Shown here: one piece after another, positions 3,018 to 3,719 of the stretch
Position numbering within the stretch: position 1 is the stretch's first letter
How the letters are laid out: each line of letters starts with the position of its first letter
NCBI RefSeq assembly: GCF_003334315.1
Contig: NZ_QOWR01000005.1
DNA length: 64,000 nucleotides
DNA from: Escherichia coli
GTDB lineage: Bacteria > Pseudomonadota > Gammaproteobacteria > Enterobacterales > Enterobacteriaceae
Direction: 5' to 3' (one strand)
The notes under the pieces: model-generated
What the model saw: the letters and a program-made list of their open reading frames with translations, nothing else
Databases searched by the model: none
What the model was told of the DNA's origin: nothing
Program-made: the position numbers and the translations under genes

Positions 3018-3719
3018 CTGAACACACCGGCACAGCTCTCTTTGCCACTTTATCTTCCTGACGACGAAACCTTTGCAAGTTTCTGGCCGGGGGATAACTC
3101 CTCTTTACTGGCCGCGCTGCAAAACGTGCTGCGTCAGGAACATAGCGGTTACATCTATCTCTGGGCACGAGAAGGCGCGGGGCGCAGTCATCTGCTGCAC
3201 GCGGCTTGCGCGGAATTGTCGCAGCGTGGCGATGCGGTGGGCTATGTCCCGCTGGATAAACGCACCTGGTTTGTTCCGGAAGTGCTCGACGGTATGGAGC
3301 ATTTGTCGCTGGTCTGTATCGACAACATTGAGTGTATTGCAGGCGATGAGTTGTGGGAGATGGCGATTTTCGATCTCTACAATCGAATTCTGGAATCGGG
3401 CAAAACACGGTTGTTGATCACCGGCGATCGTCCACCGCGGCAGTTGAATCTGGGATTACCGGATCTCGCGTCGCGACTCGACTGGGGGCAGATCTACAAA
3501 TTGCAGCCACTTTCTGATGAAGATAAGTTGCAGGCGCTACAGTTACGCGCGCGTTTGCGTGGTTTTGAACTGCCGGAAGATGTGGGGCGTTTCTTGCTGA
3601 AGCGGCTCGACAGAGAAATGCGCACGCTATTTATGACGTTGGATCAGTTGGATCGTGCGTCGATTACCGCGCAACGTAAGCTGACCATTCCGTTTGTGAA
3701 AGAAATTCTGAAGTTGTAG
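3018..3719 (+). CDS. hda: DnaA-inactivating AAA+ protein Hda (RIDA), non-canonical CTG start
   Basis: ORF encodes ...[35 protein letters not shown]...; known Hda N-terminus MNTPAQ begins at CTG 3018-3020; longest ORF (GTG 2973) would add 15 residues. Confidence 0.85.

Follow-up and report, generated by a model that had tools for sequence, protein, structure and literature searches.

The CTG initiation codon of hda in Escherichia coli and the promoter setting of the in-frame GTG upstream of it

The hda gene, which encodes the DnaA regulatory inactivator, starts at the CTG at position 3018 of the window analysed here (64,000 nucleotides of E. coli DNA, contig NZ_QOWR01000005.1), and not at the GTG at 2973 that opens the longest reading frame across it. 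This start is already known, having been published in 2008, and it is given in EcoGene, UniProt and RefSeq. The refinements added here are modest: they are the depth of conservation of the CTG, the reading of the GTG as promoter sequence, and a mapped transcription start site that excludes the GTG. It is very probable that hda has an extended -10 promoter of its own, that its mRNA begins at G2989, and that a GAGGT Shine-Dalgarno (SD) sequence directs initiation at the CUG to give the 233-residue Hda, with the GTG being merely a triplet of the promoter. The features concerned are collected in Table 1.

Table 1. Features of the uraA-hda interval and of hda, in window coordinates.
Feature	Position	Strand	Basis or remark
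uraA (uracil permease)	1634..2923	+	RefSeq CDS of 1290 nt; upstream neighbour of hda
GC-rich hairpin past uraA, 11-bp stem, 3-nt loop, no U-tract	2930..2954	+	weak terminator of upp-uraA
In-frame GTG opening the 248-aa ORF	2973..2975	+	rejected start; overlaps the TG of the extended -10 element
hda extended -10 element, TGgTAAACT	2974..2982 (TG 2974-2975, hexamer 2977-2982)	+	conservation and transcription start site
Transcription start site of monocistronic hda mRNA, G2989	2989..2989	+	SMRT-Cappable-seq, 2618805, reverse strand
hda 5' untranslated leader, 29 nt	2989..3017	+	derived from transcription start site and start codon
Shine-Dalgarno sequence, GAGGT	3009..3013	+	CTG 5 nt past GAGG; conserved
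hda initiation codon CTG, decoded as fMet	3018..3020	+	RefSeq first codon; 87/87 species; literature; 5x06
hda CDS, DnaA regulatory inactivator, 233 aa and stop	3018..3719	+	RefSeq WP_001307333.1; NF005982; PDB 5x06
QLSLPL, beta-clamp-binding motif, codons 6-11	3033..3050	+	PMC5397184; conserved in all loci

The hda locus, its protein and the published start

The window covers the upp-uraA-hda-arsC(yfgD)-bepA region of E. coli. Every one of the 5426 complete E. coli genomes has the segment from 2880 to 3760 at an identity of at least 98.5%, and the segment is 100% identical to that of strain CP53. Compared with MG1655, the DNA has a few silent or intergenic differences, while the Hda protein is identical and the CTG, the SD sequence and the gene neighbourhood are the same. 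The gene is thus the same as the CUG-initiated hda (b2496) of K-12, with no substantive difference.

Nearly all E. coli-like sequences carry a CTG at this place, so that its chance occurrence is beside the point, and the issue is whether the CTG acts as a start. In all five genomes checked, these being CP53, JM109, O157:H7 strain 611 and STEC299 (all with WP_001307333.1) and MG1655, RefSeq gives hda as a 702-nt CDS of 233 residues that starts exactly at the equivalent of window position 3018. The MG1655 gene (b2496, NP_416991.2) occupies complement 2618075..2618776, so that window 3018 corresponds to its start at 2618776, and its first codon was confirmed to be CTG. An earlier note on this DNA had placed the start at CTG 3018-3020 rather than at the GTG, and had called this a known peculiarity of hda. 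Both statements hold. The two codons are in the same frame, 45 nt or 15 codons apart, and the GTG does open the longest frame (2973..3719, 248 residues); RefSeq, the comparison of 87 species described below and the mapped transcription start at 2989 all favour the CTG. As for the peculiarity being known, the relevant passage of EcoGene 3.0 (PMC3531124) credits the CTG start of hda to Su'etsugu 2008 (J Biol Chem 283:36118), attributes to that work the experimental proof of CUG use (N-terminal sequence or start-codon mutagenesis), and counts yfjD as the second confirmed CTG start in E. coli. No hda entry was found in the initiation-profiling and N-terminomics sources consulted (Ribo-RET preprint, TRAINSPOTTER), and the hda start codon goes unmentioned in the reviews of DnaA regulation that were consulted.

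The protein encoded in the window is Hda, since both equivalog models for it score above their curated cut-offs. NCBIfam NF005982 gives 476.6 bits (cut-off 268) and TIGR03420 gives 281.4 bits (cut-off 194.8). Their first model positions fall on residues 14 and 21 of the long reading frame respectively, so the first 13 residues counted from the GTG are covered by neither. The match to PDB 5x06_E (E = 8e-157) covers residues 16-248 of the long frame, with the Hda part of that entry opening as M-NTPAQ and aligned to residue 16. Members of the Hda cluster match PF00308 and PF22688, corresponding to the AAA+ (Bac_DnaA) domain and the Hda lid. Counted from the CTG, the N-terminus is Met-NTPAQLSLPLYLPDDETFASFWPGDNSSLLAALQNVLR; counted from the GTG, the protein would begin MVNFSR.

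The clamp-binding motif, of the general form QL[SP]LPL, gives a further ruler for the N-terminus. The crystal structure of Hda with the clamp (PMC5397184) numbers the motif 6-QLSLPL-11, that is, counted from the CTG, and the stimulation by this identical protein of DnaA-ATP hydrolysis with DNA-loaded clamp (RIDA) is described in the literature (PMC5397184). Among 106 distant homologues in which the motif was recognised (40-64% identity, one per 50% cluster), it begins between residues 2 and 15 in 103, most often at residue 4. From the GTG the motif would occupy residues 21-26, outside this range, and a 15-residue extension thus shifts it away from the N-terminus.

Two observations concern the region downstream of hda. 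Between hda and arsC/yfgD, the intergenic stretch 3725-3835 carries palindromic units resembling REP sequences (GCCGGATGCGGCG / GCCTTATCCG-type), typical of the BIME elements of E. coli. The gene at 3857-4216 on the minus strand is annotated by PGAP as arsC, arsenate reductase (glutaredoxin), whereas the MG1655 record has it as yfgD, putative oxidoreductase, which is a discrepancy of annotation.

Conservation of the start across Enterobacterales

The hda loci of 80 species of Enterobacteriaceae were compared together with those of seven species from other families of the Enterobacterales (Yersinia, Erwinia, Serratia, Xenorhabdus, Proteus, Dickeya and Hafnia), making 87 in total. The hda start is CTG in all 80 of the former and in all seven of the latter. 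GAGGT precedes it in all 86 tabulated loci, and in the Yersinia locus too, with a spacer of 5 nt from GAGG to CTG in 84 of the 86 loci scored, and the alignment columns at positions -5 to -9 from the CTG have a variability of 0.01-0.02.

Both protein conservation and codon-position periodicity begin at the CTG. Over the first 40 codons from it, the variability at the three codon positions is 0.069, 0.016 and 0.239, which is the signature of coding sequence, and at -16 to -45 the corresponding values are 0.375, 0.393 and 0.402, without periodicity.

The same comparison shows how few other codons could serve. Between the closest preceding in-frame stop and the CTG, 46 of the 80 Enterobacteriaceae lack any ATG, GTG or TTG in the hda frame; in 27 of the 80 that stop is just 7 codons away, and Serratia aquatilis has an in-frame TGA 4 codons upstream. 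Downstream, the earliest canonical in-frame start is at codon 9 or beyond in every species, and its use would cut away the clamp motif partly or wholly. Given that there is no canonical start upstream and that those downstream cut the motif, the CTG is the sole codon in these species that yields the conserved N-terminus.

Orthologues of Hda (HdaA) from outside the Enterobacterales have the same architecture, in which the clamp motif within residues 2-15 is followed by the AAA+ domain and the Hda lid. They differ in their starts, which in the five sampled (45-64% identity) were assigned by gene callers as GTG, GTG, TTG, ATG and ATG, none being CTG. The CTG start therefore appears to be specific to the Enterobacterales. 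It is worth adding that three of these five called starts are other than ATG, a hint, from a small and caller-dependent sample, of weak hda starts elsewhere.

The bases next to the CTG show a pattern of their own. At -1 (window 3017) about 98% of the 87 species have a T, and the bases at -2 to -4 are freely variable (0.45-0.53). The T may have a context effect on near-cognate initiation.

In six of the genera outside the Enterobacteriaceae (Yersinia, Erwinia, Xenorhabdus, Proteus, Dickeya and Hafnia) the SD sequence reads GAGGTG, which creates an in-frame GTG 2 codons before the CTG; Yersinia and Erwinia, for example, carry GAGGTGCTTCTG, with the GTG at codon -2 as well as the CTG. The codon at -2 in the Enterobacteriaceae is GTA, GTC or GTT in 80 of 80 species, and GTG in none. 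Hda proteins of 235 residues in the databases (MLLNTPAQ...) begin at this codon -2 GTG of the non-Enterobacteriaceae families.

Promoter, transcription start and read-through from uraA

A block of the form TGnTA.A.T lies upstream of hda in 86 of the 87 Enterobacterales loci, with its TG at -15/-14 in all 86. The hexamer is TAAACT in 73 of these, TAGACT in 10, TACACT in two and TAGAAT in one. Yersinia has TGGTAAGCT, and a looser promoter pattern then covers 87 of 87. The block is part of a longer one, TGTGnTAAACT, which is conserved before hda in all the species and in the window reads TGTGgTAAACT and lies within 2972-2989. Of the 87 species, 76 keep the GTG triplet and only 13 have it in the hda frame, the distance from the -10 hexamer to the CTG varying from 33 to 39 nt across species. 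To judge from this alignment, the GTG at 2973 is conserved as promoter sequence and not as a codon.

The transcription start site agrees with this. Yan et al. (2018; PMC6131387, Supplementary Data 2) report from SMRT-Cappable-seq an operon consisting of b2496 only, with its start at 2618805 on the reverse strand, which corresponds to G2989. This base follows the -10 hexamer by 7 nt and the GTG by 16 nt, so that the leader of the hda-specific mRNA excludes the GTG. The leader itself contains no in-frame ATG, GTG or TTG. A generic scan of 2850-3150 for sigma-70 promoters and terminators gave no match; the hda promoter escapes it because it belongs to the extended -10 class and lacks a good -35 element.

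An out-of-frame ORF of 11 codons (ATG GGA TTC TGT GGT AAA CTT CTC GCG ATT TTG TGA) lies across the promoter at 2963-2998, and is probably meaningless.

Transcripts also enter hda from upstream. The hairpin past uraA has a predicted folding energy of -23.5 kcal/mol (z = -3.45), and none of 200 shuffled sequences was equally stable; the terminator scan misses it because it has no U-tract. In the SMRT-Cappable-seq data (PMC6131387) the upp-uraA transcript ends at NC_000913.3 position 2618838, equivalent to window 2956. Two conditions, M9 and rich medium, are covered (PMC6131387); in no assigned order, 95 of 260 reads continue past this end under one of them, as against 8 of 214 under the second. 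The median 3' extension of the read-through is 186-245 nt, most of these transcripts end inside hda, and a upp-uraA-hda read-through operon is listed in the same data (PMC6131387). Read-through into hda is thus substantial and condition-dependent.

Initiation at CUG and the rival starts

In the mechanism adopted here, hda is transcribed mainly from the extended -10 promoter TGgTAAACT, beginning at G2989; the 30S subunit binds the GAGGT and sets initiator fMet-tRNA on the near-cognate CUG; and the product is the 233-residue Hda with the clamp-binding QLSLPL at residues 6-11. The predicted anti-SD duplex before the CUG, at -6.9 kcal/mol, is the best among the four candidate starts. Two further possibilities were considered and rejected. 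The in-frame CTG at 3003, inside the leader, has no SD sequence (+0.3 kcal/mol) and is not conserved. Sequestration of the ribosome-binding site by structure in the leader is not supported either, since the leader and early coding sequence fold at -10 kcal/mol (z = +0.63), no better than shuffled sequences.

Hda restrains repeated initiation of chromosome replication and has to be kept at a low level, for which a start codon some 100 times less efficient than AUG is a simple route. Reporter measurements put the efficiency of CUG at 1-2% of AUG, or at 0.86%. Su'etsugu and colleagues are said to have proposed the CUG start as a means of keeping Hda scarce, and the codon reportedly holds Hda at roughly 100 molecules per cell. 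Our own suggestion is that strict conservation of the CUG would serve to keep it so. A single transition or transversion of the CTG would yield a stronger start, and the codon is still invariant in 87 species. This invariance fits selection for low Hda, short of proof, and most likely the weak CUG has been retained by such selection. In this respect hda resembles yfjD (CTG) and infC and pcnB (both AUU), where a near-cognate start is combined with a good SD sequence to give low-level expression. The AUU start of infC is autoregulated by IF3; we know of no feedback of this type for hda, unlike infC.

An extension of this idea is that the CUG acts as a regulatory sensor, with initiation sensitive, for example, to IF3 or to the level of initiator tRNA, as at the AUU of infC. 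The combination of CTG in every one of the 87 species, the lack of GTG at codon -2 in the Enterobacteriaceae and the GTG, TTG and ATG starts of distant orthologues means that the CUG could be more than a passive throttle. We regard a sensor role as unlikely; if true, it would couple DnaA-inactivating capacity to the translational state or growth rate of the cell.

The alternatives to CTG 3018 as the start can now be weighed. Translation from GTG 2973, to give the 248-residue protein of longest-ORF callers, is extremely unlikely, even though the codon is canonical, opens the longest frame, and has a weak SD-like GGGA 4 nt upstream of it (predicted duplex -4.0 kcal/mol), and even though the 248-residue form is widespread in deposits. 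The EcoGene 3.0 passage (PMC3531124) states the use of the CTG. The GTG is upstream of the hda transcription start, within a conserved extended -10 element, and is in frame in a small minority of species; more than half of the Enterobacteriaceae have no canonical upstream start at all; and no coding-type conservation is found before the CTG, the 15 extra residues being unmatched by family models or homologues. What the GTG does have in its favour is that it is present on the upp-uraA read-through transcripts, together with the weak GGGA before it. This leads to a compromise, in which the CTG gives the main 233-residue Hda and the GTG a minor 248-residue isoform, made from upp-uraA-hda read-through only. 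Transcripts that run on beyond the uraA hairpin can be measured, with the three-gene operon listed, and GTG is intrinsically a far stronger start codon than CUG. We nevertheless consider this very unlikely. As few taxa apart from Escherichia have the GTG in frame, any long isoform would not be conserved, and the short extension of most read-through transcripts would leave them stopping inside hda. In the candidate SD sequence, moreover, the 5' half (UGGGA with the preceding CA) is predicted to be paired in a 5-bp hairpin, the 3' arm of which includes G2973 and U2974. Hda begun at the correct start is reportedly the active form, and the N-terminally extended protein is said to be poorly active.

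A start downstream, at TTG 3042 (codon 9), has a practically negligible chance of being the right one. It would delete most of QLSLPL, a motif that is conserved and that the crystal structure shows bound to the clamp (PMC5397184), and it has no SD sequence (-1.7 kcal/mol). The TTG is a canonical codon, the first such in frame past the CTG, and 42 of the 80 Enterobacteriaceae share it as their first canonical start after the CTG, but in the other 38 the codon is CTG or something else. Initiation at CTG 3018 remains the reading that we adopt.

Database versions of Hda reflect the difficulty of calling this start. The exact 233-residue protein, named HDA_ECOLI in UniRef, was found on at least 1000 contigs. 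Several versions of 248 residues from E. coli and Shigella have been deposited from NCBI/GenBank, JGI, Logan and ENA, including one that occurs on 481 contigs, and the protein collection also contains forms of 238 residues and, from Salmonella, of 241 residues. The earlier note's remark that automated callers over-extend hda by 15 codons is accordingly true of ab initio predictions, in which 248-residue versions are common, and does not apply to PGAP/RefSeq, which uses the CTG. Over-extended models of 248, 241 and 235 residues still spread through public databases.

The 241-residue form can be traced to an in-frame ATG 8 codons before the CTG, which is present in 10 of the 80 Enterobacteriaceae (Salmonella arizonae and Citrobacter spp.) and accounts for the Salmonella entries of this length. 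This ATG is about 5-6 nt from the predicted transcription start and has no SD sequence. The 241-residue Salmonella entries may be over-extensions or near-leaderless starts.
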